A stretch of 64,000 nucleotides of DNA from an uncultured Candidatus Bathyarchaeia archaeon (GCA_964410135.1 CAYPFQ010000001.1:22560-86559); one strand, 5' to 3'; positions 25,465-57,751 are shown, numbered from the stretch's first letter. The notes: generated by a model not told the origin, from the letters alone. Numbers and translations: made by a program.

Positions 25465-25465
25465 A

Positions 25466-34060: not shown

Positions 34061-34151
34061 GGGCCCATAGCTCAGTCAGGTAGAGCGGTGGACTCTTAGC
34101 CTTGAGTGGGAGATCCAAAGGTCGGGGGTCCAATTCCCCCTGGGCCCGCCA
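34061..34151 (+). tRNA. tRNA-Lys(CUU) with 14-nt intron at the canonical 37/38 position (intron ~34099-34112); CCA encoded
   Basis: GGGCCCATAGCTCAGTCAGGTAGAGCG, then GTGGA-CTCTTA[GCCTTGAGTGGGAG]A-TCCAA, then AGGTC-GGGGG-TCCAATT-CCCCC-TGGGCCC-G-CCA. Without the intron the loop is CUCUUAA, anticodon CUU. The T-loop TCCAATT has an unusual C at position 55. Confidence 0.8.
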
Positions 34152-34184: not shown

Positions 34185-35258
34185 ATGCTAGAAGGATCAT
34201 GTCTAAAAGTTAAACGCCGTTTGGCTGAGAGGGCAATTTCAGCAGCCAGCAAGCTAGGGCTCTTCAACAAGGATCTACGCGTGCAGCAAATCGGAGAATA
34301 TGTGATGATTCCCCTGAATCGGGCGCCTTCAGGCCAAGCCCTAGCTGAGCTGAAGAAAAGCCTTGAAGAGTTCAAGGTTGCAACCGCTGATTTTGTGTCA
34401 AAAGAGAGATATCTCAAGTCGCTTATCGAAGCCCTAGAGGGCAAGCTCCCCCCTCACCTACTCGCTTCCTTACCGAAGTCAATCGACATAATTGGCGGAG
34501 TAGCGGTTGTAGAAATCCCAAAAGAACTTGAGCAATACCGAAGCCAAGTCGGTGAGGCATTTCTAGCCATGCACAAAAATGTTCGCACTGTATTGGCAAA
34601 GTCAAGTGCTATCGGTGGGCCCTATCGGGTTAGAGAGTTTGAGGTCATTGCTGGAGCGAATGAAACTGAAACAGTTTATCACGAGCATGGATGTGCTTAT
34701 CGTTTGGATGTGGCAAAAGTTTACTTCAGTCCAAGGCTTGCCTACGAACGCGAGCGTGTTTCAAATCAGGTGAAGGAGAATGAACTCGTGTTAGACATGT
34801 TCGCAGGGGTAGGGCCTTTTTCTATTCTAATCGCCAAAAAACATGCGCAGGTCAAGGTTTATGCCATAGACATCAATCCAGAGGCAGTCAACTACCTGAA
34901 ACAAAACATAGTCCTAAACAAGGTTCAAGACAGAGTGATCCTATTGCAAGGCGATGCTAAGAAACTGGTAAAAGGAAAGCTCGTGGGTAGTTTTGATCGA
35001 GTTATAATGAATCTTCCAGCTGAAGCTATTGCCTATGTTGACACTGCCTGTGAGACCCTTAAACCTGAGGGAGGCGTCATTCACTTCTACGATTTTGTTG
35101 CTGAACCTCAGCCATTAGAAAGGGCAGAAGAACGATTTTCATTAGCAGTAGCAAAGACTGGAAGGAAAATTGAAAAGATTTTAACCGCCCGACTTGTTAA
35201 GCCGACAGCTCCACACGAATGGCAGGTGGGGATTGATGCGGTTATTCGCCAGGTTTAA
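34185..35258 (+). CDS. trm5: tRNA (guanine37-N1)-methyltransferase Trm5 (Trm5/TYW2 family)
   Basis: 357 aa. The class I MTase core with DMFAGVGPFSI and NLPA motifs matches Trm5/Taw2, and the length fits Trm5. Confidence 0.8.
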   Translation: MLEGSCLKVKRRLAERAISAASKLGLFNKDLRVQQIGEYVMIPLNRAPSGQALAELKKSLEEFKVATADFVSKERYLKSLIEALEGKLPPHLLASLPKSIDIIGGVAVVEIPKELEQYRSQVGEAFLAMHKNVRTVLAKSSAIGGPYRVREFEVIAGANETETVYHEHGCAYRLDVAKVYFSPRLAYERERVSNQVKENELVLDMFAGVGPFSILIAKKHAQVKVYAIDINPEAVNYLKQNIVLNKVQDRVILLQGDAKKLVKGKLVGSFDRVIMNLPAEAIAYVDTACETLKPEGGVIHFYDFVAEPQPLERAEERFSLAVAKTGRKIEKILTARLVKPTAPHEWQVGIDAVIRQV

Positions 35259-38627: not shown

Positions 38628-39746
38628 TCATGCAACCTTCTTGAAGCGATCTTTCAGCTTTTCTAAGACGCTGGGAAGGGTAGTATACTCCATTTCTTCG
38701 GGTCCAAGTCTATGCGGCATAAACGGTCCATGTAGGCGTAGGTAATCCGCCATTTCATTAGCCATAGATCGTGCACGGTCAAATGCCGGGTCCGCAAACA
38801 AATCAGCTGGGCCTATTAACTTGCCCTCTGAAACTTGAAAGCCTAATGCCACAACTCTTGGAGGGCCATCGAATCTCGTGCATCTGGCATTGTTAAGGCC
38901 TACTGGCATTAGAGGCCCATGATGCGACCCCCTCATCCATCCTGCAACGATATGGGGGAAGGCGAATGCCTCAAGGGCTTCACCTACTGCTGGCAAACCA
39001 TGCTGAGCTCGGACAATACAAACTGGGTCATCTTTACCAACATATTTTCCAGCTATCAATGAAAGTCTCGCAGTGCTTGCCGCCGCCGCAGGCATTTCGT
39101 CGTATCTAGAAACTTTTGCAATTACATACCTGCTTGGGGTGCCTATTAGTGCCAATAAGTCATACATTTCCTCAGGGCATTTCAGGTCCACCATCTTGTT
39201 CTCTGTCAAATCTAACACCTGAAAGTGAAAGCCTCCATGCAATGCTGGATCGATGATTAATCCAGCCGTATTAAACGGGTCAGCGAAGATCTTGAACAAA
39301 GGCAGATTCCATGCACCAGGCTCGGTCTTATCAGCTGCAAATATGACTATAGGATCGCTCTTTCTCTCCTCAAATTCGAGCTCAGCCACACCTGGACCCA
39401 TCCCTCTCACATTGCCAGAGAAAGATTCAACCAAAAGGTCTTGACCAGCGGCGTACAGCTTCAGCTTCTTCGAAACTTTTTCTGTAACTTCTTTGAAGAT
39501 GTTCCAAGCTAGTTCGTGGATTTTTGGGTTGTTCTCTCCTTTGTGGTGGGTCATTGCTAGTTCTAGGTCGTCTCCACAGCTGAATACATAGTAGTCGGTG
39601 ACGAGTCCGCTTTTCTTTGCTTTAGCTAATGATTGCTTTGCAACTTTAATTTGCTCTGGATGGACCATGTGGTGTCCTGCTAGGCTTCCAACATCCGCCT
39701 TAATCACACTAACAGTACTCTTAACTGTTCCAGCCATTTTTACCAC
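38628..39746 (-). CDS. fbp: fructose-1,6-bisphosphate aldolase/phosphatase (class V FBPase)
   Basis: 372 aa. The N-terminal KSTVSVIKADVGSLAGHH is the hallmark of the bifunctional archaeal FBP aldolase/phosphatase. It abuts tpiA. Confidence 0.9.
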   Translation of the reverse strand: MVKMAGTVKSTVSVIKADVGSLAGHHMVHPEQIKVAKQSLAKAKKSGLVTDYYVFSCGDDLELAMTHHKGENNPKIHELAWNIFKEVTEKVSKKLKLYAAGQDLLVESFSGNVRGMGPGVAELEFEERKSDPIVIFAADKTEPGAWNLPLFKIFADPFNTAGLIIDPALHGGFHFQVLDLTENKMVDLKCPEEMYDLLALIGTPSRYVIAKVSRYDEMPAAAASTARLSLIAGKYVGKDDPVCIVRAQHGLPAVGEALEAFAFPHIVAGWMRGSHHGPLMPVGLNNARCTRFDGPPRVVALGFQVSEGKLIGPADLFADPAFDRARSMANEMADYLRLHGPFMPHRLGPEEMEYTTLPSVLEKLKDRFKKVA

Positions 39747-39808: not shown

Positions 39809-41614
39809 CTACTCAGATTCTTTTTCGCTTATAGTTGTGTAGTAGTATTCTCCGATGTCTTTCTGGTGCTTATCGAGGCGTGACCCTTCCTTGTTTACGC
39901 GGGGGCGTCTTGTGGTGGAGTCTCGCCGAAACGTGACCGCCATATCTTTCAGGAAGGCATTCATTCCATCTCTGAGGCTCACTGGCTGGTTTGCCTGTCC
40001 TTTGACGCCTGGCTCGCCTGTGAACACCATTATGCGGTCGGCGATGAAGTCCTCGGCTACCACATCATGTTCAACTACGAATGCGGTTGCACCCTTACTT
40101 TCTACTATTCTCCGTATTGTCCTAGCCATCGCTAATCGTTCTTCAACATCCAGGTAGGCGCTTGGCTCGTCGAGAAGATATATCTGGGATCCTCTTGATA
40201 GACAGGTAGTGATTGCGACTCGTTGCAGCTCTCCTCCGCTAAGCTCCTTCACCTGTCTGTCTAGAAGTCTCTGGATGTTTAATGGCTGGGCAAGTTCGGA
40301 TTTGAACCAGCTCGATCCATATTCGTCTTTAGCTACTGTTCGGAGGAGCGATTCGACTGTGCCGTCATATTCGGGCGCGATGTATTGAGGCTTATAGCTG
40401 ACCTTTTGGGCATTCCTCAGTGGAGCGCCTTTATCTGGTTTTTCGATTCCAGCTAGAAGCTTGACGAACGTGGTTTTCCCAATTCCGTTAGGTCCAAGTA
40501 TCCCGATTACTTCTCCTTGGTGGATCTCTCCATGCTTGGTGGTTAGGGTGAAACCGTCGTAGGTTTTCTCCATCGCCTTCCATTTTAGCACGACCCTGTG
40601 GGCAGCCCACGCGGTTACTGGTGGGTGAAGTGGGAACTTTATTGGCGTCTCTCTGAATCGCACATTCTCGTCGGCAATATAGCCTTCTAGATAGATGTTT
40701 ATCCCAACCCGTACTCCATGTGGATGGGAAACGATTCCATAGATACCGGGCTCACCATACAATACGCATACTTGATCTGAAAGATAGTCTAGAACTGCTA
40801 GGTCGTGCTCAGCTACAAACACGGTCTTACCATCATCCTTGAGGCTACGAATTGCTTTAGCTACTTGGAGGCGCTGTTTCACGTCTAGATAGCTTGACGG
40901 CTCATCGAAAAAGTATACATCCGCTTCTCGGCACATAGCCGCTGCAATCGCTACTCTCTGCAACTCTCCTCCGCTTAATTGGTCGAGGCTTCGAGTCCAA
41001 ACCGGGGTTAATTGAAGTTGCTCCGCGATCGTACTTAATTTTCCACGGTCATCCGCCTTTTCGAGAAGTTTCTTTACATTTCCTGAGACTGCCTTGGGCA
41101 ACGCATCGACATACTGAGGTTTGTGGACAACTTTCAATTTGCCTTGGCTTAATCGATTAAAATATTCTTGAATAACTGAACCCCTATAATGTTGGATTAT
41201 CTCTTGCCAGCTTGGAGGGTTCTCATATTTTCCTAGGTTTAGCCTGACTTCGCCAGTCAAGATTTTTATGACCGTTGTCTTTCCGATGCCGTTTCTACCG
41301 ATAAGCCCTGTAACTGCTCCTTTTTGCGGTACTGGGAGCCTGAAAAGCTCAAATGTGTTAGGTCCAAATCTGTGGCTTGTTTCTCCAGCTAATTTGTCTG
41401 GAAGGTTGACGATGTATATGGCAGAGAAGGGGCATTTTTTAATGCAGATTCCGCATCCGACACACAGGTTTTCAACTATTGTTGGCTTCTTTTCGCCTTC
41501 TTTGAATTCTATGGCGAAGACCCTGCTCCTCACTTTAGGGCAAAACTTGTAGCAAACTATGCCACAGTCTTCAGGTCTACATCGGTCTTTGTCAAGAACT
41601 GCTACGCGAATCAT
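39809..41614 (-). CDS. abcE1: ribosome-recycling ATPase ABCE1 (RNase L inhibitor homologue)
   Basis: 601 aa. The N-terminal FeS domain (CRPEDCGIVCYKFCP, CVGCGICIKKCP) is followed by two ABC cassettes (GIGKTT, LSGGELQR twice). Confidence 0.9.
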   Translation of the reverse strand: MIRVAVLDKDRCRPEDCGIVCYKFCPKVRSRVFAIEFKEGEKKPTIVENLCVGCGICIKKCPFSAIYIVNLPDKLAGETSHRFGPNTFELFRLPVPQKGAVTGLIGRNGIGKTTVIKILTGEVRLNLGKYENPPSWQEIIQHYRGSVIQEYFNRLSQGKLKVVHKPQYVDALPKAVSGNVKKLLEKADDRGKLSTIAEQLQLTPVWTRSLDQLSGGELQRVAIAAAMCREADVYFFDEPSSYLDVKQRLQVAKAIRSLKDDGKTVFVAEHDLAVLDYLSDQVCVLYGEPGIYGIVSHPHGVRVGINIYLEGYIADENVRFRETPIKFPLHPPVTAWAAHRVVLKWKAMEKTYDGFTLTTKHGEIHQGEVIGILGPNGIGKTTFVKLLAGIEKPDKGAPLRNAQKVSYKPQYIAPEYDGTVESLLRTVAKDEYGSSWFKSELAQPLNIQRLLDRQVKELSGGELQRVAITTCLSRGSQIYLLDEPSAYLDVEERLAMARTIRRIVESKGATAFVVEHDVVAEDFIADRIMVFTGEPGVKGQANQPVSLRDGMNAFLKDMAVTFRRDSTTRRPRVNKEGSRLDKHQKDIGEYYYTTISEKESE

Positions 41615-43833: not shown

Positions 43834-44400
43834 CTATTTTGATATGCGTAGTAAAGCGCCACGTTCAATTATGAGATAGGTTAAGGCCTCTTTCTCTGCG
43901 TTTTTTGTTTCAGCCTTAGCCTCCACTTCTTTGTCAGTAATTTCAAACAATTTCTTCAGAGTAACGTATTTCTCGTCGGTCACCCGCATTACATCGTCAT
44001 CCGGTTTGCCGCCTAGGATCTCAGAGACTATGTTAAAAGCTGTCTTGACCTCATTTTCGCTGCTCGCTATGATGAGAACTGCTACGTTACGTGTTTTTGG
44101 CATTACTCCTAGCATATCAAACGATCTTTGGATCTGTCTCTGTCCAGAAGCATAGAGAATCGCCTCAGTTGCTAGTCCATGGGTCAACTCCGACTTATCA
44201 TGGAATGCTTTGAGTGCATTTAGCGTGGCGAAGTATATGTGCTGCCAGCCTGCAACCTTGGCTGCATTGAAAATTTGAACATGTGCCTCGGTTTTATTTC
44301 GGATTTTATCGAATACCATGTCCACATTAGTGATTTTTACGTCTTTTAAACCAGCAATTACTACAAATTTGCCGAATTCCTCGGCTTCTTTAAGCAGCAC
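43834..44400 (-). CDS. cgi121: KEOPS complex subunit Cgi121
   Basis: 188 aa. ILYASGQRQIQRSFDMLGV aligns with the conserved LVRASGQRQI motif of archaeal Cgi121. It is next to tsaC. Confidence 0.7.
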   Translation of the reverse strand: MLLKEAEEFGKFVVIAGLKDVKITNVDMVFDKIRNKTEAHVQIFNAAKVAGWQHIYFATLNALKAFHDKSELTHGLATEAILYASGQRQIQRSFDMLGVMPKTRNVAVLIIASSENEVKTAFNIVSEILGGKPDDDVMRVTDEKYVTLKKLFEITDKEVEAKAETKNAEKEALTYLIIERGALLRISK

Positions 44401-45146: not shown

Positions 45147-45875
45147 GTGATTAAGGCTGTTCTAATTGACTTTGGGCACACTTTAGTTAAGCAGCGAACT
45201 GAGGAAGAGCTATTGCTAAAACGAGGTGTAAGGCAACTGGCGAATTACTTGAAGATGAAGGGCTATCCGCTACCGGTTGATCAGTTTGAACGTGTAGAGA
45301 AGGCATCGAGGAACGAAGCAGATCGCTTCCGAGAAAAAACATTGATTGAAGTAAAGGCGCTTAATAGGATGACTGTTCTGCTGAATAGATTTGGAGTGCC
45401 AGTTAGCCCGGATGACGAACTAGCCCAGAAAGCTTTGCTCCTATTTTATGAGCCAATTGTAAAAGATATGAGGCTTTATCCCGATAGTATAAGGTTCCTC
45501 AGGGCTTTGAAGAAAGAAGGATATAAGCTGGCTTTAGTTAGCAACGCTGCCAATGACATCGCCGTGAAAGAGGCTGCGAAACGATTAGGAGTAGCTAAGT
45601 TTTTCGATACTCTCGTCATCTCAAGCCAAGTGGAAATCAGAAAGCCTGGCTTGGCAATCTTCATGCGAGCACTAAAAGACCTGAAAGTAAAACCCAGTGA
45701 AGCCGTCTTCATCGGCGACTCGATGAGCAAAGACGTAATAGGTGCAAAAAAAGTTCCAATGAAAACTATTCTCATAATAAGGCAATTCAAGAAGATTAAG
45801 CAAAGCATTTCCGATGCAAATGTTAAGACCTTAACCGAAGCTGCTGAAGTCCTAGCTGCGTGGAAGAAAGCTTAG
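45147..45875 (+). CDS. HAD-superfamily hydrolase
   Basis: 242 aa with GTG start. Motif I is LIDFGHTL and motif IV is IGDSMSKDV. Confidence 0.7.
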   Translation: MIKAVLIDFGHTLVKQRTEEELLLKRGVRQLANYLKMKGYPLPVDQFERVEKASRNEADRFREKTLIEVKALNRMTVLLNRFGVPVSPDDELAQKALLLFYEPIVKDMRLYPDSIRFLRALKKEGYKLALVSNAANDIAVKEAAKRLGVAKFFDTLVISSQVEIRKPGLAIFMRALKDLKVKPSEAVFIGDSMSKDVIGAKKVPMKTILIIRQFKKIKQSISDANVKTLTEAAEVLAAWKKA

Positions 45876-45877
45876 AA

Positions 45878-46813
45878 TTACTTTGAAATTGCTTCGAACA
45901 TTCTTTCTAGTGAAACTCTCGCCCTTTTGGCCATTGGTTCTGGAACGGTTACCCGATATCGTTCCTCTTTTAGCGCCATGTAGACCCGAGTGAGGTTGTT
46001 AAGTTTCATGTTGACGCACCACGCATCCTCATAGGCTGGGATAAACGTCTTATTAGGGTTCTCTCTATTAAGCCGGTGCAGGAGTCCCACTTCGGTTGCC
46101 ACGATGAATTTTTTGGCATTTGATTGTTTTGCATACTGGCACATCTGGGTCGTAGATCCTATGAAGTCAGCTGTCTGCTGGACATCAGGGGTGCATTCCG
46201 GATGCACCATCACTGTTGCGTCTGGGTTTAGCTCTTTTTGGATTAGTATATCTTCTTTTAAGAATAGGATGTGCGTTTGGCAGAAACCCCTCTCCGGTAT
46301 GGGAATTATCCTCTTGCCAGTTCTTTGTTCTAGATACCACGCAAGATTAATGTCGGGGCCGAAGATTATAGTGTCTGAATCCAATGAATCTACAATCTTG
46401 ACTGCGTTTGCAGAAGTGCAACAAATATCACACATTGCTTTCGCTTCAGCGAGGGTATTTACATACAAAACAATCGGGATGTTAGGGTACTTTTCTTTCC
46501 AAACTTTGATTTGTATTGCTGGAAGCATGGATGCCATTGGGCATTTGGCACCTAGGCTTGGAATTAGAACTTTTTTATCGGGATTTAGAATTACAGCTGT
46601 TTCAGCCATGAAGTCTACTGAGCAATGGACAATAATCTTTGCCTCTTTTTCCTCGATAGCCTTTTTTGCAAGTCCCACACTGTCGTCGACATAATCTGCC
46701 AGATCCTGAATCTCAGGTCTCTGATAGTTGTGGGCAAGTATAATTGCATGTTTCTCTTTCTTGAGTTTCTTGATTCGTTCGACTAGTTCTTCTGTCTTCA
46801 TTTTAACCACCAT
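45878..46813 (-). CDS. nadA: quinolinate synthase
   Basis: 311 aa. ILAHNYQRPEIQDLADYVDDSVGLA is conserved, and three Cys residues provide the FeS cluster ligands. Confidence 0.9.
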   Translation of the reverse strand: MVVKMKTEELVERIKKLKKEKHAIILAHNYQRPEIQDLADYVDDSVGLAKKAIEEKEAKIIVHCSVDFMAETAVILNPDKKVLIPSLGAKCPMASMLPAIQIKVWKEKYPNIPIVLYVNTLAEAKAMCDICCTSANAVKIVDSLDSDTIIFGPDINLAWYLEQRTGKRIIPIPERGFCQTHILFLKEDILIQKELNPDATVMVHPECTPDVQQTADFIGSTTQMCQYAKQSNAKKFIVATEVGLLHRLNRENPNKTFIPAYEDAWCVNMKLNNLTRVYMALKEERYRVTVPEPMAKRARVSLERMFEAISK

Positions 46814-47135
46814 GCGATACCGGGATGACTACTATCGTGTCATCTTCCCCAACTCTCGTTTCCAATCCTTGTAGGGCGCTTATTTCCACATCGTTTACGA
46901 GGATCAAGGTGTTGGGTCTTGGGTCGTTTAGTTCTGGATCGATAACGGCTCGTTTGAATGCGAGTCCAAGGCTCTCTGATAAGTCTTGTATTAGTTGTTT
47001 AATGGTTACAGGTGTTTCTGATTTTACCGAGATCTCGTTTTTTCCAGCGAGCCCTCTAAGAACCCCGACAAGCTTAACTTTAACTTTGCATGTCTCCGAA
47101 GACGTAGACATCTTCTTCGTAACTTCGTCCCCCAA
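46803..47135 (-). CDS. MoaD/ThiS-family ubiquitin-like beta-grasp protein ending in Gly-Gly (SAMP-like)
   Basis: 110 aa with the C-terminal ...DDTIVVIPVSHGG and a beta-grasp pattern. It overlaps the nadA start, so it is coupled to it. Confidence 0.55.
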   Translation of the reverse strand: MGDEVTKKMSTSSETCKVKVKLVGVLRGLAGKNEISVKSETPVTIKQLIQDLSESLGLAFKRAVIDPELNDPRPNTLILVNDVEISALQGLETRVGEDDTIVVIPVSHGG

Positions 47136-47952
47136 CCGTACTCCCTGGCGGTAGGTGTTTCAAATGTTTCTTTCGAAAGAGCTCTTTTAATTTAGCTCTT
47201 ATCACGGTGAGGTTTCGGTTTCTTAGGATTTCTAGCGGGATAAATAAGTTTAGTGGTCTCGCTGGAATGATGTGTCTTGTCGCCTTTCTGGCGAAAAACT
47301 GTTTCTTTGAGGCTACGGTGATTACGGATTTTTTATCGATTTGTGGAACTACGATTACGGCGTCTATTGTGCCATTATTCAGGGCATGTTTGGCATCTTC
47401 TGGTGTGGCATACTCGATGGTTGCGCCAGCTTTTCTTGTGGCTTCTTCAATCCGTTTAACCAAGTCATACTGGCGTCTAATGTCCATGGGCTTTGAATTG
47501 ACTATGAAGCCGCTTTGGCTGGTTAGGATAGATGCAGGGACCAGTTTAGATCCAACTGCCGACTCCGCGGCTTTTTGAGTGGTCTTGGTGATGCCTACTC
47601 TGAAGCTTTTCAAGATTGTAGGTAACTGGTTCTCTGTTTTTAGATCAGAGATTGTTCTGTACCAGCTGCTGAGGTGAATTTGAGGGCTTTTGTAGTTTAC
47701 TAGGCAGACTGGAACCCATTTACAGCCAAGCCTTTTTAATGCTACAAAACGGTGTGTGCCATCTAAGATCACGAGCGTCTTTTTATCGACTATAACTGGG
47801 TGTTTGACGTATCCATCATTGTGGATTCGTTTCATCATCTTGTCTACAAGGGACGGCAATGCTTCTTCGTGTGGGCGGATGGCATTAGTATTGGCTATGT
47901 CTATATCAAATCTGAGATCTCTGTGGTGGATTGTAACTAGTGGGGCGGCCAT
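47080..47952 (-). CDS. ParB/sulfiredoxin-like (DGxHR) domain protein with C-terminal uncharacterised domain
   Basis: 290 aa. The N-terminal HPVIVDKKTLVILDGTHRFVALKRLG resembles the ParB/Srx nuclease-like fold. The rest is unassigned. Confidence 0.45.
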   Translation of the reverse strand: MAAPLVTIHHRDLRFDIDIANTNAIRPHEEALPSLVDKMMKRIHNDGYVKHPVIVDKKTLVILDGTHRFVALKRLGCKWVPVCLVNYKSPQIHLSSWYRTISDLKTENQLPTILKSFRVGITKTTQKAAESAVGSKLVPASILTSQSGFIVNSKPMDIRRQYDLVKRIEEATRKAGATIEYATPEDAKHALNNGTIDAVIVVPQIDKKSVITVASKKQFFARKATRHIIPARPLNLFIPLEILRNRNLTVIRAKLKELFRKKHLKHLPPGSTVGGRSYEEDVYVFGDMQS

Positions 47953-48341
47953 TATGCGTGCTCCTCTGCCTCCTCGCCTGTAACTGCTTCTACGATGTCT
48001 GTAGTTACCTCGATGACGGCGTGCGCCTCTCTCAGGGCTACTTCTTTGATTATGTTTTCAGTCATCTCGCTGTGTGCTCGTATTTTTCGCTCAATCTTAA
48101 CTAAACAATGGAGTAGCGGGTCGGGGATGTGGTTTTTTCCTTCGGCGATCTGACGGATCATCGGTTCTAAGTATACGGGATCTCCGAGGCTGTAATATAC
48201 TGCGGCCTGGGCTTTTTTCATCGCTAATATTGCTACGCTTATCGCCATTAGTGGAGGGCTTTTTTCAGCTGTTGATAGATCAGCTTTCGCCTCTCGTAGG
48301 TATCGAAATGCCCAGCCTTTTCTGTATTCGTCAACAAACAA
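47952..48341 (-). CDS. HEPN-like helical protein
   Basis: 129 aa, all-helical, with an R-x4-H motif (ERKIRAH). It is tightly coupled to the ParB/Srx-like gene. Confidence 0.4.
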   Translation of the reverse strand: MFVDEYRKGWAFRYLREAKADLSTAEKSPPLMAISVAILAMKKAQAAVYYSLGDPVYLEPMIRQIAEGKNHIPDPLLHCLVKIERKIRAHSEMTENIIKEVALREAHAVIEVTTDIVEAVTGEEAEEHA

Positions 48342-48392
48342 AATCGTCAGCCCCTATCCCAATCTATCTGACTGAGCCATAATAAAACCTAA

Positions 48393-48611
48393 TTAGACAG
48401 TAGCTGCGGCTGAAGCTTCTTTCTTCTGTTCAATGCGCTTAATTCTTGCCGCATAACCTGCAATTCTGTTTCTTAGTCTTTTTGAGGAGACGGTTGCAAA
48501 TTGTTCTACCAGCTTTTTGTTGGTCTCGTAGTCGGCGGTGAATTTATCGGGATATGTTTCTACGAGTTCCCTCGCTAGCTTCTTGACTGCTTCTGGGCGT
48601 ACTCTCCCCAT
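48393..48611 (-). CDS. rps17e: 30S ribosomal protein S17e
   Basis: 72 aa. [25 protein letters not shown] matches S17e. Confidence 0.85.
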
Positions 48612-49072: not shown

Positions 49073-50722
49073 ATGAGTGTAGCGGTTCCAGGTGAATTGA
49101 GCGGTCAACCCATAATCATTCTAAAAGAAGGTACTGCGCGTAGACGAGGGCGAGAAGCCCAAAGAAACAATATTATGGCTGCGAAAATAATCGCTGAGGT
49201 TTTGAGGTCTACTCTTGGTCCACGTGGGATGGATAAACTGCTTGTGGACAGCCTTGGCGATGTTGTAATTACGAATGATGGCGCTACAATTCTTGACGAG
49301 ATTGATGTGCAACATCCCGCTGCAAAGATGCTTGTAGAAACAGCGAAAACCCAAGACAAAGAAGTAGGAGATGGAACTACTACTGTTGTTGTTTTGGCTG
49401 GTGAACTGTTGAAGAAAGCTGAAGAGCTTTTGGATCAGAATATTCACCCTACAACAATAGTGAGCGGATATAGGAAGGCGACTGACAAAGCCTTAGAAGT
49501 TCTATCAAAATTAGGGGTCACTACTGATATAAACGATCGTGCAACATTGAAGAAAATCGCTGTTACTTCAATGCACAGCAAGTCTATCGGGGCTGCGAAG
49601 GAACACTTCGCCGATATAGCACTTGAAGCTGTTAAGCAGGTTGCGGAGAAACGGGGTGACCACTGGATTACTGACATTGACCAGATTCAAATTGTAAAGA
49701 AAGCTGGTGAAAGCCTCATCGATACGCAGCTCATCAGAGGGATTGTTGTCGATAAGGAAGTTGTGCACTCAGAAATGCCTAAGCGAGTTGAGAAGGCAAA
49801 AATTGCACTGCTAGATTGCCCATTAGAAATTGAAAAAACCGAGTTTAGCGCAGAAATCCGAATTCGTGACCCAACTCAGATGAAAGCATTTCTCGACGAA
49901 GAGACGCATATGCTGAAAGCTATGGTTGACAAGATCAAGTCTTCAAATGCGAATGTCATCTTCTGCCAGAAGGGAATCGATGACATGGCACAGCACTTTT
50001 TAGCCAAAGAAGGAATCCTGGCTGTTAGAAGAGTGAAGAATTCTGACATGGAGAAACTTGCTAGAGCCACAGGCGCCCGGCTTGTTACAAATCTCGATGA
50101 TCTTAAACCTACTGACTTAGGTTCGGCAAACCTTGTATATGAGCGGAAGATCGGTGAAGACAAAATGGTGTTCGTTGAGGGATGCAAAGATCCCAAGTCG
50201 GTCAGCATACTCATTCGCGGCGGTCTGGAACGAATGGTAGATGAAGCGGAAAGAGCTATGCACGATGGGCTAAGCGTTGTTGCGGACGTGATTAAAAATA
50301 ACAGGATGGTGGCTGGTGGAGGCTCGATAGAGGCCGAAATAGCAAAACAATTACGTGACTACGCCCCTAAGGTCGGAGGAAGGGAACAACTCGCTATCGA
50401 AGCATTTGCCGAAGCTTTAGAGGTCATCCCCAAAACTCTGGCTGAAAATGCTGGGTTAGATCCAATCGACATAATGGTGTCTCTGAAAGCCGCTCATGAG
50501 AAGGCAAAGGGCACCTGGATGGGTGTAGGAATATTCAGTGGCAAAGTAGTTGATATGATGGAGAGTGGCGTAGTTGAACCCCTGAGCGTTAAAGAACAAG
50601 CAGTTAAGTCGGCGACGGAAGCTACCTCAATGATTATGAGGATAGACGACGTAATCGCAGCCTCGAAACCCTCTAAGAGAGAGATGCCGCCCATGCCTCC
50701 AGGTGGAATGGAAGGCTACTAG
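49073..50722 (+). CDS. ths: thermosome subunit (group II chaperonin)
   Basis: 549 aa with [17 protein letters not shown] and [16 protein letters not shown] motifs. The C-terminal tail is Met/Gly-rich. Confidence 0.95.
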
Positions 50723-51647: not shown

Positions 51648-51842
51648 GCTCTGTATTTAATAATTGCTTGCTATAATTGTGGGCAACTTTTATTGGTAAA
51701 AAGTGGGCAAAAAACTAAGGTTTGCTCTTATTGTGGGTCAAGTTTTCATGTTATTCGAGCTAAGATTATTGCACGCGAGCGCTCTGCAAGGAGAGCTTCT
51801 CTTGTGCTTAGATCGTTGAAAAGGGCAAGAAAAGAGGGCTAA
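51648..51842 (+). CDS. zinc-ribbon reading frame (C-x2-C-x15-C-x2-C plus basic tail) directly in-frame after the TAG stop of the kinase gene; no canonical start before the first CxxC
   Basis: Translation continues ...GWM*ALYLIIACYNCGQLLLVKSGQKTKVCSYCGSSFHVIRAKIIARERSARRASLVLRSLKRARKEG*. The only in-frame ATG, GTG or TTG is a TTG lying between the two CxxC pairs. Confidence 0.35.
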   Translation, partial: ALYLIIACYNCGQLLLVKSGQKTKVCSYCGSSFHVIRAKIIARERSARRASLVLRSLKRARKEG

Positions 51843-53389
51843 GATGTGTTCTGAGCTTCATCTAGATGTGTTTGTATCAGGGTGTACCTAGTCTGCCCAG
51901 TTTTTTCATCGAGTTCTTTTTTGATTATGCCCTTCTCTGATAGCTCATTTAGAATTGGTACCGCTATTGGGTAAAACTCTGAGGTGGATACGACAGTCTT
52001 AATTTCATCATCGGTAAGAGATCCGTATTCTTTGAATAGCTGGTACAGCTTTGTTTGCATAATCAATTTTGCCATGGGCGGTTGCGAAGGTTTCTCTGCA
52101 ATTTCTATGTGGTATTCATAAAATCTTTTTTGCATTGTATTTTTCAGTTGGTCGTCAGATAACTGTGATAGGATTGAGGATTCTGTTTCTACATAGATTG
52201 GGAATGCGTAGGGGATTAGTGGCATGTTTACGATGGCTTCACCAAGTTTGAGATAGTGAAGATAACTTGCCTGTCTCTCAGTGAGCTTCATTGCTCCCTG
52301 CAGAATTTTTCGGTCATCCTCTGTCTTTATTTGGTGACAAATCCTTGTTGCAGCATTTTTCAGAATCTCATAAGAAACCTGTGTTGGAAACTGTGAGATT
52401 ATCACTAATCCTTCACCAAATTTTCTAAGCTCTGAAATCATCTTCTCTCCGATTGATGGCGGGTCTTCAGGGCGTCTGGCTGGGATTATATTGCGGGCTT
52501 CTTCGATTATTGTCACATGTTGGAGTTTAGAAAATTTCTCTTTCGTACGGTAATCATATAGGAGCTTAAGAAAGATTGAAGTGAAAATTTTTCTAATTTC
52601 CTGTTCCTTAAAGTGTCCCAGTTCTACAGACACTATGTCACTTAGAATATCTTCAATTGGGATTGTTGTTTGCCCGTTCAATGCTTTACCTGCCTGTCCC
52701 TCTGTTAGTGGTTTCAGCCTCCTAAGCAGGGCCAATTTGGTTTCATTGTCGTAGGCTGAGCGTATCGGAGCGCGTTCTATCTCCTGAACGATATCTGAGA
52801 CTATAGGTGGCAGCGATGGTTTCTCGCTAAAATAGCCGCATCTTCTATATGTACTCCGCAGTGCTTCCCTAAACATGTACCCTTGCGGCGGTGTGAAGTT
52901 GAATATATCCGTAAAAATATCTGTCACGAGACTCATGTGTTCGCTCAGATCTCCGGAAAGCGAGGGATCCAACGGGTTCACAGTTAATGGTGCTACATCT
53001 TTTCCAGGCGTGAAAACTAACCCATTTTTATGAGATACTATATTCCTGTACTCATTGTGCCAATCAATCACTAATACCTTTATTCCGAGTTCCACAAGTC
53101 TCGATAGAATCACACTGGCAGTTGTTGATTTTCCCGATCCGGTCATTCCGAAGATCGCGATGTGCGTATTCAAGTCTTCGAGACTTAGATGCACCCCGTA
53201 GAGATTGTTCCCATGTTTCTTAACCCAGCCTAAAAATGGACCGTCCCTTCGCACTTCACTTGGTCTTGGGAGATTAAAATAAGGTTCGACTACAAGATCG
53301 ACGGTCGTAGGTGTTGGCATGATAAAATTAGTCAGGGTAACAATTTCAGGTGCGATTAATGTTGAGGTTGAGGAACTGGAAAAGGGCAT
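51839..53389 (-). CDS. DUF87 ATPase (HerA/FtsK/VirB4-like) with C-terminal wHTH-like segment
   Basis: 516 aa. Walker A is FGMTGSGKST. The DWHNEY motif is typical of HerA/VirB4-type ATPases. It is the last gene of the operon. Confidence 0.7.
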   Translation of the reverse strand: MPFSSSSTSTLIAPEIVTLTNFIMPTPTTVDLVVEPYFNLPRPSEVRRDGPFLGWVKKHGNNLYGVHLSLEDLNTHIAIFGMTGSGKSTTASVILSRLVELGIKVLVIDWHNEYRNIVSHKNGLVFTPGKDVAPLTVNPLDPSLSGDLSEHMSLVTDIFTDIFNFTPPQGYMFREALRSTYRRCGYFSEKPSLPPIVSDIVQEIERAPIRSAYDNETKLALLRRLKPLTEGQAGKALNGQTTIPIEDILSDIVSVELGHFKEQEIRKIFTSIFLKLLYDYRTKEKFSKLQHVTIIEEARNIIPARRPEDPPSIGEKMISELRKFGEGLVIISQFPTQVSYEILKNAATRICHQIKTEDDRKILQGAMKLTERQASYLHYLKLGEAIVNMPLIPYAFPIYVETESSILSQLSDDQLKNTMQKRFYEYHIEIAEKPSQPPMAKLIMQTKLYQLFKEYGSLTDDEIKTVVSTSEFYPIAVPILNELSEKGIIKKELDEKTGQTRYTLIQTHLDEAQNTS

Positions 53390-54327
53390 AAAAAATTTCC
53401 TATAGTCTCGAGAAGTTCCACATTTTTGAGTTGTAACGCCTCCATTTCGGGAAAGACGGCGACTATCGCTGCAAGAACGCTGTTCACATTTTCCGCGAGC
53501 CTATTAAGAAGATTATCTAATTCGTTTTTGTCACCATCAGCCCATATGAAAAATAGTACTTCTGTTTGGAAGAATCCTACCTTGCTACCAAGATAAAGCC
53601 TCTTCAACTCAGATTTCTCTTCTTCGAGCATTCTCTCATCCACCGCTCCTAACGTGGCTTTTGAATCTCCTATGTATTTCACATCAGATTCTAATTGCCT
53701 TAGTTTTGACTTGAGTAGTTTTGATTCTGTACTGATTGGGTTAAGAGAAACGACGTAAATGCACGGTATGCCGCGTTTCTGAATACCTGAGAAGAAATCA
53801 CGTAGCTTATAGAATGTGGAAATGTACTCTAGCCGATTTGAGTAGGCCTCATCGCTTATTTCAACCTCAGGAATTCTAGGTCTGCCAGTAAGCCGTATCA
53901 CGGCCATTGCCCTAGCCCTCGATTTTGATTCAAATATCAGCGATCTTCCTTGCATAAGTTTGGCAGCTGTAACATTTAGTGCTTGAAAAATTTCTATTTC
54001 ATTTTTACCAACTACTCTTAACCGAATACCTGCTCGCCGTAGTATTCCAGTAACCTCCGAGGAAAAATGTCGCAGGAGAAGTGCACCGCCAAATAGGAAT
54101 GCGCTTCCTACGATAAGGGGGAGGTCTATCCCGCCAATTTTAGATGGAATTTTAATGCTTGATGACGTAAGCAACCAGCGTAAGTCAAGCAGTATGATAA
54201 TTGCCATGATGATTGGTATGCTAATCTGCATCAATCTGCCATCAGGCTTAGGCATAGGACTACCTTCGGCTAACCGGTCCACATCCAGCTGAATAAGCCT
54301 TGAGCGATCTCTTGTATCTCCTTCCAA
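53356..54327 (-). CDS. membrane-anchored protein (N-terminal TM segments + cytoplasmic domain), unknown family
   Basis: 323 aa with a hydrophobic N-terminal region (IPIIMAIIILLD, LPLIVGSAFLFGGALLL). It overlaps the DUF87 ATPase gene by 34 nt. Confidence 0.35.
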   Translation of the reverse strand: MEGDTRDRSRLIQLDVDRLAEGSPMPKPDGRLMQISIPIIMAIIILLDLRWLLTSSSIKIPSKIGGIDLPLIVGSAFLFGGALLLRHFSSEVTGILRRAGIRLRVVGKNEIEIFQALNVTAAKLMQGRSLIFESKSRARAMAVIRLTGRPRIPEVEISDEAYSNRLEYISTFYKLRDFFSGIQKRGIPCIYVVSLNPISTESKLLKSKLRQLESDVKYIGDSKATLGAVDERMLEEEKSELKRLYLGSKVGFFQTEVLFFIWADGDKNELDNLLNRLAENVNSVLAAIVAVFPEMEALQLKNVELLETIGNFLCPFPVPQPQH

Positions 54328-54546: not shown

Positions 54547-55374
54547 TCAGTAAACAAGAAGCATCGGTAAAAATGAGGTAGCCACAATGAATATCCCCCA
54601 AAAAACTATCAGGGATGCGACAGAGTACATGTACGGGTTTTCAGCAAACGACATCAACCCAGCATAGTATGCAGAGATGCTAGATGTTACTGAAATGGCT
54701 ATTGCAAGAAGCCAGTGCACATTGAATGCTAAATTTGATCTAACAGCTAGATGTGAGATGATGATCGCCGAGAATAGCGGCAGCATGGCTAATAAGATAG
54801 CTGATGATGCCGAACAAGCAACTATTAGAATCTTAATCTTGAAAGACAGCCCCTTTGCTACATGCTCTCTCTCTTCTAGAAGCCTGCGGTTCTCTCGATG
54901 TCTTAAAATAGCTTGTGCCAGATGCTCTCCTGCTTTTTTTGAGTCGGTTTCAATAAGTCTGCAGACCATGAACATCAATGGACGGAGTTTTTTTAAGTTT
55001 GGCTGAGATGCCATATAATCGAACACTGAAACAAGTGGCAAACCACTCGCGATTCTGTTAGATACCTCGAGTAGTTTAGCACGTAATGGTCCGGCATAAT
55101 GGCTAATTGTGTTTTCATATGCAAGCTCTGGGCTGTTGCCTCGTTTTAGTTCCTCAGCAAGAAGCGTCAGAAACGATTCAAATTCACTCACTGCTTGACT
55201 TTCATTAATCTCTTTTTTTGTAAATATGGTCGGTAGCAAAGCCAAGATGGTTATCGTAATTGCAACGAAAGTAATGATGGCTATAGATGGGGTATACGTA
55301 ACTATGTAGATCGCTAGAGCTGCGAGAAAACCACACATAATTCCTGTAATCGTTTGGAACCGAGAGCCTCTCAT
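54547..55374 (-). CDS. TadC/GspF-like pilus platform membrane protein (T2SSF-like domain)
   Basis: 275 aa. TM helices at the N-terminus, a central cytoplasmic helical domain and C-terminal TM helices give the T2SSF topology. Confidence 0.55.
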   Translation of the reverse strand: MRGSRFQTITGIMCGFLAALAIYIVTYTPSIAIITFVAITITILALLPTIFTKKEINESQAVSEFESFLTLLAEELKRGNSPELAYENTISHYAGPLRAKLLEVSNRIASGLPLVSVFDYMASQPNLKKLRPLMFMVCRLIETDSKKAGEHLAQAILRHRENRRLLEEREHVAKGLSFKIKILIVACSASSAILLAMLPLFSAIIISHLAVRSNLAFNVHWLLAIAISVTSSISAYYAGLMSFAENPYMYSVASLIVFWGIFIVATSFLPMLLVY

Positions 55375-56180
55375 CCTAATAGATGCGCCTCGTTTCGCGT
55401 TAATCTATGGAATGTAAGATCCATCAATATGGTGTGAAGTGGAACTATTAAGAAAACATAGGGTGAACTGAATAAGCCCAGCATGGTTATGCCGAAAGAG
55501 AACACTAATGGTAAGAAGAAGCCTGAAGCTATGAAAACAAGTGCCTGACTTTCAAATTGAAGTGAAAACTCCTGGAAATAGCCTCTAACCTCAAACTCAG
55601 ATAAATCAATTAAATGTCGCAGAGTCCCTTCAGTTAGCATGCGCGAGGAGAGAATCTCAATAAGGCCGTGTCGAAATGCTATTGAAGGTTGGCTGTGCGC
55701 ATAATCCATCAATAATTTATCTGGATCTCGCCCGCTAAGAGTCTGAAAACTGACCTCCTTGATTTTCTCAGAGACATAGGGATAGTTTCCCAGTATAATT
55801 GCCTGTAATGCGTCGAATATCGATCCCGTTGATTTAAGAATGAAGTAAAATTCTTGAAGTATCAAGCTTGTATAGCTTGAGATCGTTATTCGTTCTACTC
55901 TTAGTTTATTCGGCAGATAATTGATAAGAAGTAAGAATGAAATATAGCCAAGCGTGATGGAAATGACTGTTGCAATTAAAGAATTTAAATAGAATAGAAT
56001 TGAGAACGTAGCTAACCCAATTGTTGTGGATATGCCCAAGGCGCCGGCTATCACGTCTTCTGGTTTAAATTTATAATAAATCGCGGCATTTTTTGTTAGT
56101 TCACTCAGAGGGATTCTCCTAACAACCTTGAGTGGAATTACTGGCGCAAAAAATGTGAAAGCAGTCCTTATCAGATTCAA
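55371..56180 (-). CDS. TadB/GspF-like pilus platform membrane protein (T2SSF-like domain)
   Basis: 269 aa with the same topology as its neighbour. The two are coupled by 4-nt overlaps, looking like a split FlaJ/TadBC. Confidence 0.55.
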   Translation of the reverse strand: MNLIRTAFTFFAPVIPLKVVRRIPLSELTKNAAIYYKFKPEDVIAGALGISTTIGLATFSILFYLNSLIATVISITLGYISFLLLINYLPNKLRVERITISSYTSLILQEFYFILKSTGSIFDALQAIILGNYPYVSEKIKEVSFQTLSGRDPDKLLMDYAHSQPSIAFRHGLIEILSSRMLTEGTLRHLIDLSEFEVRGYFQEFSLQFESQALVFIASGFFLPLVFSFGITMLGLFSSPYVFLIVPLHTILMDLTFHRLTRNEAHLLG

Positions 56181-57751
56181 TGTTCAAATCTCGCATCGTG
56201 CTGTCTAAGAAACTCAAGGAATTCATCCCAGTCGGCGGATCCATCTTGTTCCCATCCTATTTTTGTGGCGTGTAGATAATGGAATATCTCTACATTTTCT
56301 CTAACTCCAAAAATCTGGTTTTGAGCGAGCATCTTGAAGAGTTTTTTGTAAGCATTGTATTCGTCATAAAATTTTGCGCTATCAATATGCTCTATTTTTA
56401 TAATTTTTTGAAATACGGGAGCTTCAGTTAGATCGCATGCCAACTTTAATGTGGAGTCAGCTGGATCCCATGAGAAGATGTCCTGTAAATTTATTGTCGA
56501 GATGTCTAGGCAAACCGGTTTATTAGGTAAAGCAACTTCACAAATCTTTATAACTCTTCGCACATCTTTTCCAGAGATACGTAGCTTTTTAGTTTGAACG
56601 ATTAAATCTAAGTCAAAGAAGCATATGACTGGAACTTTGTGATGGGTAGCCCATCGGACGATCGCCTGTTCAGGTGATGCCGCATGACAGGTTTGAAGCC
56701 CTTTTAGACCTGCTGCGAGAGCATGAAACATGGCTAAACTATGCTCAGCTGTTTGGATTTCTCCCAGATAGATCCAATCAGGTGCCCTATGCAGTAATTT
56801 TATAATCTCAACGCTCTTTGTTAGGCCTTCGCGGTCGAGGGATTCGAACGGTTTAACTTTGAGCCGGATTTGGTGATTGCCAAATTTGGTTTGCGGAATG
56901 CTTTCAACCACATCTTCTACAGTTATTTTTCGCCACTCAGGGGGAGTCAGCAGGTCTATCGTATTAATCAGCGTGGTTTTTCCAGATCCGGGTTCGCCGA
57001 TGACAGTTATATTCCGTTTTCTCGTCAAGCAAAAGTAAAGGTAGGCCGCTGCTTCAGAGGTTAGTGTACCGTTAAAGATCAATTCTGGTAGAGTGAAATA
57101 TTTTCTCCGTAATTTTCTGATATCTAGATGTGCACCGTCAACCGATAATGGAGGGATATCGATCGAGAATCTGGCTTGGAAATCGTTTGCGAATAGCTCT
57201 GTTTTTAAAGAAGGGTTTATGGCATCTAGCCGTAGCCCACTTTCTGCTCTTAGTCTAGTCTTTAGAGCCGAGACTTCTCTCCCAGATAAGTGTATGTTTG
57301 TTCGGCAACGTCCCCATCGCCGGTGATCTATGTATAAAAACCCATCCGGATTGTCCAAGAAGATCTCGTCAACATCTTCGTCAAGCAAGAAGGGCATTAT
57401 CTTCAAAAGACGCATTGATCTGTAGGCCGCTAGAATTGAGAGGGTATTAACTTTACCCTCCGGTAAGACTGGGTATTTCAGCTTCAATTGATTTTTAGCT
57501 TCGGTAATCCTTTCTGCTGTTAAATCTTGAAATTTTGGAAATTGACAGTTTGACAAATTAGAATTTAACCTAAGTGCCTTAACTAGCTCATCGATGATTC
57601 CCTTTAATTGGTAATAACTGGCATCGGGGGATATATGGTAAAAACATTCAGACATCTTAGGTAATTGAGGTTCGTAGATTCTAATCCTATACGGTCCAAC
57701 AGCATGTTCTTCTACAAAATTACACGAATTCAAAATTGAATCCGACATCAA
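56177..57751 (-). CDS. type II/IV secretion-family ATPase (TadA/FlaI/VirB11-like)
   Basis: 524 aa. Walker A is VIGEPGSGKTTLINTI. The downstream GEI...His-box region is WIYLGEIQTAEHSLAMFHALAAGLKGLQTCHAAS. The N-terminal domain has the typical length. Confidence 0.8.
   Translation of the reverse strand: MMSDSILNSCNFVEEHAVGPYRIRIYEPQLPKMSECFYHISPDASYYQLKGIIDELVKALRLNSNLSNCQFPKFQDLTAERITEAKNQLKLKYPVLPEGKVNTLSILAAYRSMRLLKIMPFLLDEDVDEIFLDNPDGFLYIDHRRWGRCRTNIHLSGREVSALKTRLRAESGLRLDAINPSLKTELFANDFQARFSIDIPPLSVDGAHLDIRKLRRKYFTLPELIFNGTLTSEAAAYLYFCLTRKRNITVIGEPGSGKTTLINTIDLLTPPEWRKITVEDVVESIPQTKFGNHQIRLKVKPFESLDREGLTKSVEIIKLLHRAPDWIYLGEIQTAEHSLAMFHALAAGLKGLQTCHAASPEQAIVRWATHHKVPVICFFDLDLIVQTKKLRISGKDVRRVIKICEVALPNKPVCLDISTINLQDIFSWDPADSTLKLACDLTEAPVFQKIIKIEHIDSAKFYDEYNAYKKLFKMLAQNQIFGVRENVEIFHYLHATKIGWEQDGSADWDEFLEFLRQHDARFEH

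Follow-up and report, generated by a model that had tools for sequence, protein, structure and literature searches.

A long-form SerK/SbnI-family protein encoded in a probable housekeeping gene block of Bathyarchaeia

Results and discussion

Five genes stand in a row on the minus strand at positions 45878-48611 of a 64,000-nucleotide (nt) stretch from an uncultured Candidatus Bathyarchaeia archaeon (GCA_964410135.1 CAYPFQ010000001.1:22560-86559), and this whole stretch of DNA is called the window in the following. They encode S17e, a 129-residue all-helical protein with a HEPN fold (X129), a 290-residue long-form homologue of the serine kinases SerK and SbnI (SerKL), a beta-grasp ubiquitin-like protein (Ubl) and the quinolinate synthase NadA. 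Our data indicate that this locus is probably an old housekeeping block of archaea in its Bathyarchaeia form, with a SerK-family kinase inside it, and not a defence island. The order of the block would be thermosome, S17e, small protein, Ubl and, farther on, Cgi121, with the SerK-family gene lying within. We propose that SerKL would convert L-serine to O-phospho-L-serine through a Glu/Asp/DGxHR/KxTRH active site as in the Thermococcus SerK, and that the O-phosphoserine would be used by the O-phosphoserine--tRNA ligase SepRS for tRNA-dependent cysteine formation in this organism and by an adjacent CysK-type synthase in its relatives. For its activation Ubl would depend on an E1 whose gene lies in another part of the genome.

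The genes are packed very tightly. S17e (48393-48611; Pfam 5e-20; NCBIfam 97.7 bits against a cutoff of 72) is the upstream anchor of the block and is spaced 51 nt from X129 (47952-48341) on the same strand. As read from the sequence, the X129 stop and the start of SerKL (47080-47952) have one base in common (TAATG). SerKL overlaps Ubl in a different frame, by 32 nt if Ubl starts at an ATG (46803-47111, 102 residues) or by 56 nt if it starts at a TTG (46803-47135, 110 residues). The Ubl stop is separated by 1 nt from the second ATG of nadA (45878-46801, 307 residues), and with the upstream ATG (45878-46813) the two genes would have an 11-nt overlap. The ATG at 46801 is the likely start, and the 307-residue form is also the one picked by gene callers on metagenome contigs that are 99-100% identical. 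JGI samples 3300022551, 3300031806, 3300031604 and 3300025144 contain such near-identical contigs. These open reading frames (ORFs) are real genes and not chance ones, since the search listings hold 167 homologues of SerKL, 516 of X129 and 83 of Ubl, and nadA scores above its equivalog cutoff. The operon genes are presumably co-transcribed. The first-pass annotation had described the four genes from X129 to nadA as a tightly coupled minus-strand series in this order, and all four ORFs and their overlapping or abutting junctions are present.

SerKL is a two-domain relative of SerK and SbnI

The N-terminal part of the 290-residue protein had been annotated as a ParB/Srx-type domain and its C-terminal part as unassigned. 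A Pfam search of SerKL gives a weak ParB_N match alone (3e-3). The NCBIfam models are more informative: residues 21-243 align to positions 20-243 of the 244-position model for SerK, the ADP-dependent L-serine kinase (2.7e-23), and the N-domain matches the model for SbnI, the free serine kinase of Staphylococcus (3.9e-17). Both models are matched by 18 of 18 diverse aligned members of the SerKL family, and the best member reaches only 3.4e-37. A phmmer search against PDB aligns residues 21-242 with residues 22-240 of the Thermococcus kodakarensis SerK (5x0b, 8e-15) and matches the Pyrococcus orthologue as well. A SerK characterised from Staphylothermus is ATP-dependent.

We predicted the 3D structure of SerKL using AlphaFold2 (pLDDT 94.2) and compared it with PDB using Foldseek. 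The nine best matches are all SerK or SbnI and extend across both domains, with target-normalised TM scores of 0.73-0.83 to SerK and 0.68-0.81 to SbnI over ~230-258 alignment columns; ParB N-domains and sulfiredoxin cover only ~90 residues. The phmmer and Foldseek results agree on a two-domain build, a ParB/Srx-like N-domain followed by a SerK-type C-domain. The annotated N-domain is supported and has the DGTHR motif at residues 64-68, but the supposedly unassigned domain turns out to be the SerK C-domain, because the alignment with SerK covers its full length, the fold is the same and the key residues are invariant.

The residues in question are H29, E30, D69, G70, H72, R73, Y92, W102, K205, K221, R224, H225 and P228 in the numbering of SerK, all invariant in 120 homologues, and the position equivalent to SerK T223 is T in 118 of them and S in the other two. 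In SerKL numbering, E29, D64, G65, H67, R68, K223, R226 and H227 are among the invariant sites and T225 is the one with T in 118/120; the motif of the C-domain reads KATRH, as against KTTRH in the T. kodakarensis SerK. SerK E30 is the position mutated (E30A, E30Q) in the substrate-complex structures 5x0e and 5x0j. SerKL is like SerK (T. kodakarensis TK0378, 5X0B) and SbnI in its two-domain build and in the H-E (E30), DGxHR and KxTRHxxP motifs, and its relatives are likewise tied genomically to cysteine and serine metabolism (PMC5120207). Another protein called 'SerK-like', a CTP-binding protein (PMC12704722), differs from the SerKL family in the sequence of its Box I helix.

Distribution and metabolic context of the SerKL family

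In a genome scan with one genome per species we collected 142 SerKL relatives, and the locus counts given in this paper are based on the best 80 of them. A wider set comprises 91 loci that have the kinase or Ubl, and single loci are cited by L numbers. The neighbouring genes were clustered, and representatives of the clusters were then named by family search. Over half of the 80 loci come from Bathyarchaeia (45), and the others from Asgard archaea (Hermod-, Thor- and Promethearchaeota, 9), Hadarchaeota (8), Desulfurococcaceae (8), Methanomethylicia (4) and other lineages (6). The gene is apparently single copy, the 80 loci being from 80 different records. All 80 species-level loci are at most 41% identical to SerKL, and metagenome contigs carry copies at 99%, 78% and 54-59% identity. 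The 167 listed homologues are ~285 residues long and, where named at all, are called 'ParB N-terminal domain-containing protein'.

The neighbours of the gene, which we call the kinase gene below, point to serine and cysteine metabolism. A cysteine synthase gene is directly upstream on the same strand in ~11 Bathyarchaeia loci (TIGR01139 cysK, 359.5 bits against a cutoff of 350.95), and a PGDH-like (phosphoglycerate dehydrogenase) gene together with a class V aminotransferase gene adjoins the kinase in ~7 loci. Genes for tRNA synthetases are also among the neighbours, seryl in 13 loci and threonyl in 5. Makino et al. reported that the serK genes of Desulfurococcales are adjoined by dehydrogenase and aminotransferase genes (PMC5120207); the neighbours of the kinase gene in our Desulfurococcaceae loci have no similarity to that context, and NCBIfam gave only a formamidase-like match for them.

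The window itself encodes SepRS on the plus strand at 29772-31391, 16 kb from the operon (Pfam tRNA-synt_2d and SepRS_C; TIGR00470 sepS 623.3 bits against a cutoff of 380.65, E 3e-187). SepRS ligates free O-phosphoserine to tRNACys. Its presence means that the organism uses tRNA-dependent cysteine formation, at least in part; no SepCysS-sized gene for an enzyme dependent on pyridoxal phosphate (PLP) was recognised in the window. SepRS has been reported in Bathyarchaeota, Hadesarchaea, Verstraetearchaeota and in TACK and Asgard groups (PMC5424206), and the lineages of the kinase family (Bathyarchaeia, Hadarchaeota, Methanomethylicia and Asgard) overlap with these. The most economical reading is that SerKL is a free serine kinase giving O-phosphoserine for cysteine formation, its substrate and nucleotide being inferred.

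Genes that travel with the kinase

S17e was found by tblastn in 38 of the 80 kinase loci. X129 separates S17e from the kinase in 15/80, all of them Bathyarchaeia, and Ubl comes after the kinase in 19/80, namely in 15 Bathyarchaeia, three Methanomethylicia and one Nitrososphaerota. The order S17e-kinase-Ubl-PRT-Cgi121 in the Methanomethylicia (L077, L079, L080) is that of the window minus X129, nadA and a HAD gene. In the window clade, i.e. at a kinase identity of at least 54%, the order X129-kinase-Ubl-nadA-(HAD, on the opposite strand)-PRT-Cgi121 is conserved.

Several loci depart from these arrangements. The Asgard loci L021, L032, L033, L039, L040, L042, L062 and L064, from Hermod-, Thor- and Promethearchaeota, have the order Lsm, archaeosine TGT, S17e, kinase, a 335-residue protein and PAC2 (an example is L021 8986-9993) and are without Ubl and X129; the 335-residue protein has no match in Pfam or NCBIfam. 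A Bathyarchaeota chromosome (CP070730.1, L082 5552-6306) has S17e, X129 and Ubl without a SerK-like gene, and hence X129 and Ubl can stay adjacent without the kinase. In L083 (4168-5802), and also in L084, an ORF of 544 residues with no family match is placed between the kinase and Ubl, and the Ubl-nadA junction is intact. The C-terminal part of the L083 ORF has a LAGLIDADG-like stretch (PFLAGYVISDGNW), which suggests a mobile insertion of the homing-endonuclease type.

Ubl and the Urm1-type neighbourhood

Ubl had been annotated as a beta-grasp protein of the ThiS/MoaD/Urm1 kind, and two Pfam families support this above their gathering scores, Urm1 (7e-7, 30 bits against 21.8) and ThiS (1.2e-6, 29.4 bits against 22.5). 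It remains below the NCBIfam cutoffs of SAMP1, Urm1_like and moaD_arch (37.7, 32 and 31.5 bits against 49.5, 60 and 70, in that order). A profile of the Ubl family searched against PDB detects Ta0895 of Thermoplasma (6.6e-12), a SAMP1 homologue (3e-7), yeast Urm1 (1.6e-6), the CysO-type carriers 4n6e_B (7.7e-5) and 3dwg_C (4.9e-4), the Sulfolobus Urm1 4wwm (5e-3) and also MoaD structures. The window Ubl ends with IPVSHGG. The Gly-Gly terminus proved to be conserved in the orthologues: a C-terminal HGG is found in 82 of 83 homologues, 58 of which have IPVSHGG, and 15 of the 19 syntenic copies keep the Gly-Gly end.

The neighbourhood of Ubl is similar to those published for archaeal Urm1-type proteins. 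In Sulfolobales an Urm1-like Ubl is encoded near S17e, a small uncharacterised protein, a HerA-like ATPase and a divergent thermosome gene (Makarova & Koonin 2010, PMC2948915), and in Thaumarchaeota a Cgi121-Ubl fusion is co-transcribed with S17e (PMC2948915). The Sulfolobus Urm1 (Saci0669) has FBPase, RLI, PAC2 and proteasome subunits in its neighbourhood, several of which were detected as targets of Urm1 conjugation (Anjum et al. 2015, PMC4569737). The window has an ORF for a thermosome subunit on the plus strand at 49073-50722, divergent from the operon, and Cpn60_TCP1 occurs at the same position in L081, L083, L090 and L091. It also has a HerA-like ATPase on the minus strand (51839-53389; Pfam DUF87, the HerA central domain, 2.6e-22) and, as a downstream marker, the KEOPS subunit Cgi121 on the minus strand (43834-44400; Pfam CGI-121, 7e-14). 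Pfam searches further identified FBPase (38628-39746), RLI/ABCE1 (39809-41614) and proteasome beta (27552-28166).

We infer from these data that Ubl corresponds by position to the archaeal modifier and sulfur carrier of the Urm1/SAMP type; it is only the conserved neighbourhood that points to an Urm1-type role. Ubl shares with such proteins the beta-grasp, the Gly-Gly end and the neighbours. It differs from the Sulfolobus Urm1 in being nearer in sequence to Ta0895, SAMP1 and archaeal MoaD, and from the Urm1/SAMP type in that some of its relatives have lost the Gly-Gly end. The neighbourhood differs as well, in that here a SerK-like kinase gene, translationally coupled on either side, separates the gene of the small protein from that of Ubl.

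The first-pass annotation remarked that a Gly-Gly protein of this kind normally needs an E1-like or sulfurtransferase partner and that none is adjacent. Neither a motif scan nor Pfam and NCBIfam searches of ~45 ORFs found an E1-like gene (ThiF/MoeB/UbaA) in the window, but the absence of an adjacent one is to be expected because the published accounts of archaeal Urm1/SAMP neighbourhoods do not list an E1 either (PMC2948915, PMC4569737). The Sulfolobus Urm1 is activated by an E1-like enzyme that is absent from the description of its neighbourhood (PMC4569737).

Does the kinase work together with Ubl?

A number of observations weigh against SerKL being simply a free serine kinase in a housekeeping block, and they concern the score, the extra residues, the position next to S17e and Ubl, and the location of SepRS. 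SerKL scores 82.4 bits against the SerK equivalog cutoff of 380 (NF053625) and 62.5 bits against the SbnI equivalog cutoff of 350 (NF033589). As it is below both cutoffs, the SerKL family is, on sequence grounds, a long-form sister family of SerK/SbnI and not an orthologue of SerK, and its identity to SerK in the Foldseek alignments is only ~20%. It is ~45 residues longer than SerK, and the C-terminal extension (residues ~245-290), with the conserved LPPGSxxxGRxYEEDxYVF, is modelled with high confidence by AlphaFold2 as a helix and beta-strands. R99, R232, G270, R276, Y278, E280 and F285 are invariant in the family and missing from the T. kodakarensis SerK. With three extra arginines and a structured tail, SerKL may bind a further anionic ligand or another protein. 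Because of the score far below the SerK cutoff and these family-specific residues, the substrate or partner of SerKL could differ from free serine.

The family also differs from SerK in where it is found and what it stands next to. Makino et al. (2016, PMC5120207) found no clear-cut SerK homologues outside four genera; the SerKL family is not in Thermococcales, and occurs instead in Bathyarchaeia, Hadarchaeota, Methanomethylicia, Asgard and Desulfurococcaceae, where it often follows S17e and, in certain lineages, precedes Ubl. S17e is immediately upstream of the kinase on the same strand in 35/80 loci, including 9/9 of those in Asgard. A purely metabolic role of the kinase does not explain this attachment to S17e across phyla, nor the extra arginines and the tail. 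Moreover, none of the 91 other loci has SepRS within 8 kb of the kinase.

The kinase-Ubl junctions overlap or have a gap of at most 45 nt in all 19 syntenic loci, and one protein, P0026 (L081 8001-9155), is a kinase-Ubl fusion of 384 residues ending with IPVSHGG. It is encoded on a 779-kb contig of JGI sample 3300051196 in a thermosome-histone-S17e-X129 context, and is weak evidence because it comes from a single contig. Four syntenic Ubls, from independent Bathyarchaeia genomes (L014 8816-9094, L022 5694-5975, L045 3762-4043 and L047 4764-5042), have lost the Gly-Gly and end with R(I/L), i.e. IPLMR(I/L) or PLVRL. Their ORFs are intact, the core is conserved and there is no frameshift that would restore HGG. 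With such termini the usual thiocarboxylation or conjugation is not possible; since these Ubls are retained after the kinase, they should have a Gly-Gly-independent role, presumably partner binding. The tight junctions, the one fusion and the Gly-Gly-less Ubls together suggest a direct kinase-Ubl interaction.

One way to account for these observations is a cysteine or thiol module with two arms, in which the kinase would make O-phosphoserine and the Ubl thiocarboxylate would give sulfur to a PLP enzyme encoded elsewhere, either a CysM/CysK-type synthase or SepCysS acting on Sep-tRNA, in a manner like the CysO-CysM pair of Mycobacterium. The close junctions fit this proposal, as do the kinase-Ubl adjacency kept in Bathyarchaeia, Methanomethylicia and one Nitrososphaerota genome, the free HGG end of the natural fusion, the ability of the Ubl profile to detect the CysO-type carriers, the ties of the kinase family to cysK in other loci and SepRS in the window. 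The resemblance to the M. tuberculosis CysO-CysM-Mec+ system is that a Gly-Gly carrier of the ThiS/MoaD type goes together with a source of O-phosphoserine, CysO being detected weakly by the Ubl profile. But no CysM, no Mec+ (JAMM) and no MoeZ-type E1 is beside the window pair or in the scanned parts of the window, where a motif scan, a cysK tblastn search and family searches of the ~45 ORFs found neither a JAMM motif nor CysK/CysM, and Mycobacterium obtains its O-phosphoserine from SerC and not from a serine kinase. No clustering of a carrier, a PLP synthase and a JAMM protein was seen among the neighbours in the 91 kinase or Ubl loci. Loci with cysK have no Ubl and loci with Ubl have no cysK, 4/19 syntenic Ubls lack Gly-Gly, L082 keeps X129 and Ubl without the kinase, CysO is more distant from the Ubl profile than SAMP/MoaD/Urm1 are, and Ubl is found beside S17e also in lineages for which PMC2948915 reported no such kinase. 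We consider this two-armed module unlikely on balance.

We may also speculate, at a still lower probability, that the kinase, Ubl and X129 form one sulfur-incorporation module, the Ubl thiocarboxylate being the sulfur donor that turns phosphoserine, free or bound to tRNA (SepCysS), into cysteine, with X129 as an adaptor. In a variant of this module the kinase itself may activate Ubl without an E1.

A different possibility is that the kinase acts on or with Ubl, either by activating the Ubl C-terminus as an acyl-phosphate without an E1 or by having Ubl, with X129, as a non-covalent regulatory subunit. Sulfiredoxin, which has the same fold, phosphorylates an acidic sulfinate, and this speaks for the possibility. 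The fusion protein, the Gly-Gly-less Ubls retained beside the kinase, the family's own invariant arginines (R99, R232, R276) and structured extension, which SerK does not have, and the lack of an E1 in the scanned window ORFs are in line with this possibility. Yet the 61/80 loci without an adjacent Ubl conserve the extra arginines and the extension just as well, the fusion is from one contig, the active-site motif residues shared with SerK are fully conserved, and an activation of Ubl of the kinase type would be without precedent, and we give this explanation little credit. The reading that we prefer remains that of a housekeeping block with a serine kinase inside it.

X129 and the defence reading

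A fold search was the sole informative search for X129 and assigned it a HEPN helical-bundle fold. Searches of Pfam, NCBIfam and PDB by single sequence or profile gave nothing, and the Pfam HEPN models did not match any of 32 members of the X129 family, even with E values up to 1. The family is small: its profile drew 82 matches from 1.84 billion representatives, and all the named ones are Bathyarchaeota. W10, R13, R16, E17, K43, S51 and P55 are invariant in the family, and Y6, Y49, G53, D54 and E84 are nearly so. The window X129 carries RKIRAH, which fits the Rx4-6H pattern, but this motif is found in the helix-4 region of only 7/120 homologues and the histidine position (90) is mostly V, A or L. 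The HEPN-like fold of the first-pass annotation holds, and the RNase motif is not conserved.

X129 differs from the known HEPN proteins (AF0298/UPF0332, HEPN-MNT toxins and sacsin HEPN) in escaping the Pfam HEPN models, in not conserving Rx4-6H, in having its own set of invariant residues, in being confined to Bathyarchaeota-labelled sequences and in having no nucleotidyltransferase partner. Judging from these residues X129 is probably not an RNase, and it would probably act as a lineage-specific accessory or binding subunit. We also considered whether X129 corresponds to arCOG07188, a small protein whose gene separates those of S17e and Urm1 in Sulfolobales, and the profile search gave no link between the two.

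The first-pass annotation leaned towards a defence or DNA-modification context, which would make SerKL a DndB/DGQHR-like ParB protein acting with a HEPN toxin, and Ubl a conjugation component. The HEPN fold of X129, its RKIRAH sequence and the ParB/Srx-type N-domain of the kinase with a DGxHR motif agree with that idea, the last feature being shared with DndB/DGQHR and defence ParB-like proteins. SerKL is nonetheless unlike the DndB/DGQHR proteins in its SerK-type C-domain, its housekeeping synteny and its apparent single copy, and its match to a characterised metabolic enzyme is incompatible with the idea. PADLOC gives no match for X129 or Ubl, and for the kinase only a marginal one to a methyltransferase model, in its ParB-like N-terminus (1.3e-3, 15.6 bits). 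The Rx4-6H motif is absent from nearly all X129 homologues, the housekeeping synteny is fixed across phyla, and the locus has no features of a mobile element or variable island. A role in defence or DNA modification was rejected on these grounds, and we assign it a negligible probability.

nadA as a passenger of the window clade

NadA is identified well above the cutoffs (Pfam NadA 1.2e-111; NF006878, 395.9 bits against 294; TIGR00550, 356.6 bits against 262.9). The Ubl-nadA junction is common to L083, L084 and L086-L091, all in the window clade, so that nadA is a clade-level addition to the older block. None of the 80 species-level loci has nadA adjacent, and 3/80 have it within 8 kb, at ~3 kb. 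The coupling to nadA noted in the first-pass annotation is thus real, with its 1-nt junction, but is conserved only in the window clade, and the synteny rules out nadA as a general partner of the block. We regard nadA as a clade-specific co-transcribed passenger rather than a functional partner.

A functional tie between Ubl and NadA, in which Ubl would provide the sulfur for the [4Fe-4S] cluster of NadA or modify NadA, would explain the 1-nt junction, and this junction is kept in the clade even where the 544-residue gene has come between kinase and Ubl. But outside the clade nadA is not in the block, the Methanomethylicia have Ubl-PRT-Cgi121 without it, and there is no known chemistry linking an Ubl to quinolinate synthase; such a tie is highly improbable.

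Downstream of nadA, a HAD-family hydrolase gene (45147-45875, plus strand; TIGR02253-like, below the cutoff) is convergent with it, the two stops being 2 nt apart, and the nadA-HAD pair is kept together in the window clade.

Other features of the window

A tRNA gene is located at 34061-34151 on the plus strand (88-91 nt; Rfam 56 bits). Its anticodon was not assigned by ARAGORN, and it probably contains an intron. A gene for a Trm5/TYW2 methyltransferase (34185-35258) is just downstream of it. Three minus-strand ORFs of 323, 275 and 269 residues (53356-54327, 54547-55374 and 55371-56180) have no Pfam match, and the 323-residue one has no NCBIfam match either; they sit between the HerA-like ATPase gene and a T2SSE/VirB11-type ATPase gene (56177-57751). 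Two tandem paralogues of the PmbA/TldD metallopeptidase family, of 461 and 475 residues, are encoded on the minus strand at 24079-26893.

Conclusions

The long-form family is widespread in uncultured archaea including Asgard, and its members are either unnamed or annotated only by their ParB N-terminal domain. We found no report of its breadth, of its link to cysK and, in the present genome, to SepRS, or of its conserved coupling to Ubl. The locus also illustrates that a HEPN fold beside a ParB/Srx fold is by itself no sign of a defence system.

If the members of the family are serine kinases, they would be a source of O-phosphoserine for archaea that depend on SepRS/SepCysS or on a CysK of the O-phosphoserine type, and would fill a gap in the cysteine and serine metabolism of Bathyarchaeia, Hadarchaeota, Methanomethylicia and Asgard. 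Should the kinase, Ubl and X129 indeed form a sulfur-incorporation module, this would present Ubl as a candidate for the sulfur donor that has long been looked for in vivo in the SepRS/SepCysS pathway of non-methanogenic archaea. The coupled and once-fused kinase-Ubl pair bears on how sulfur is delivered when cysteine is made from phosphoserine.

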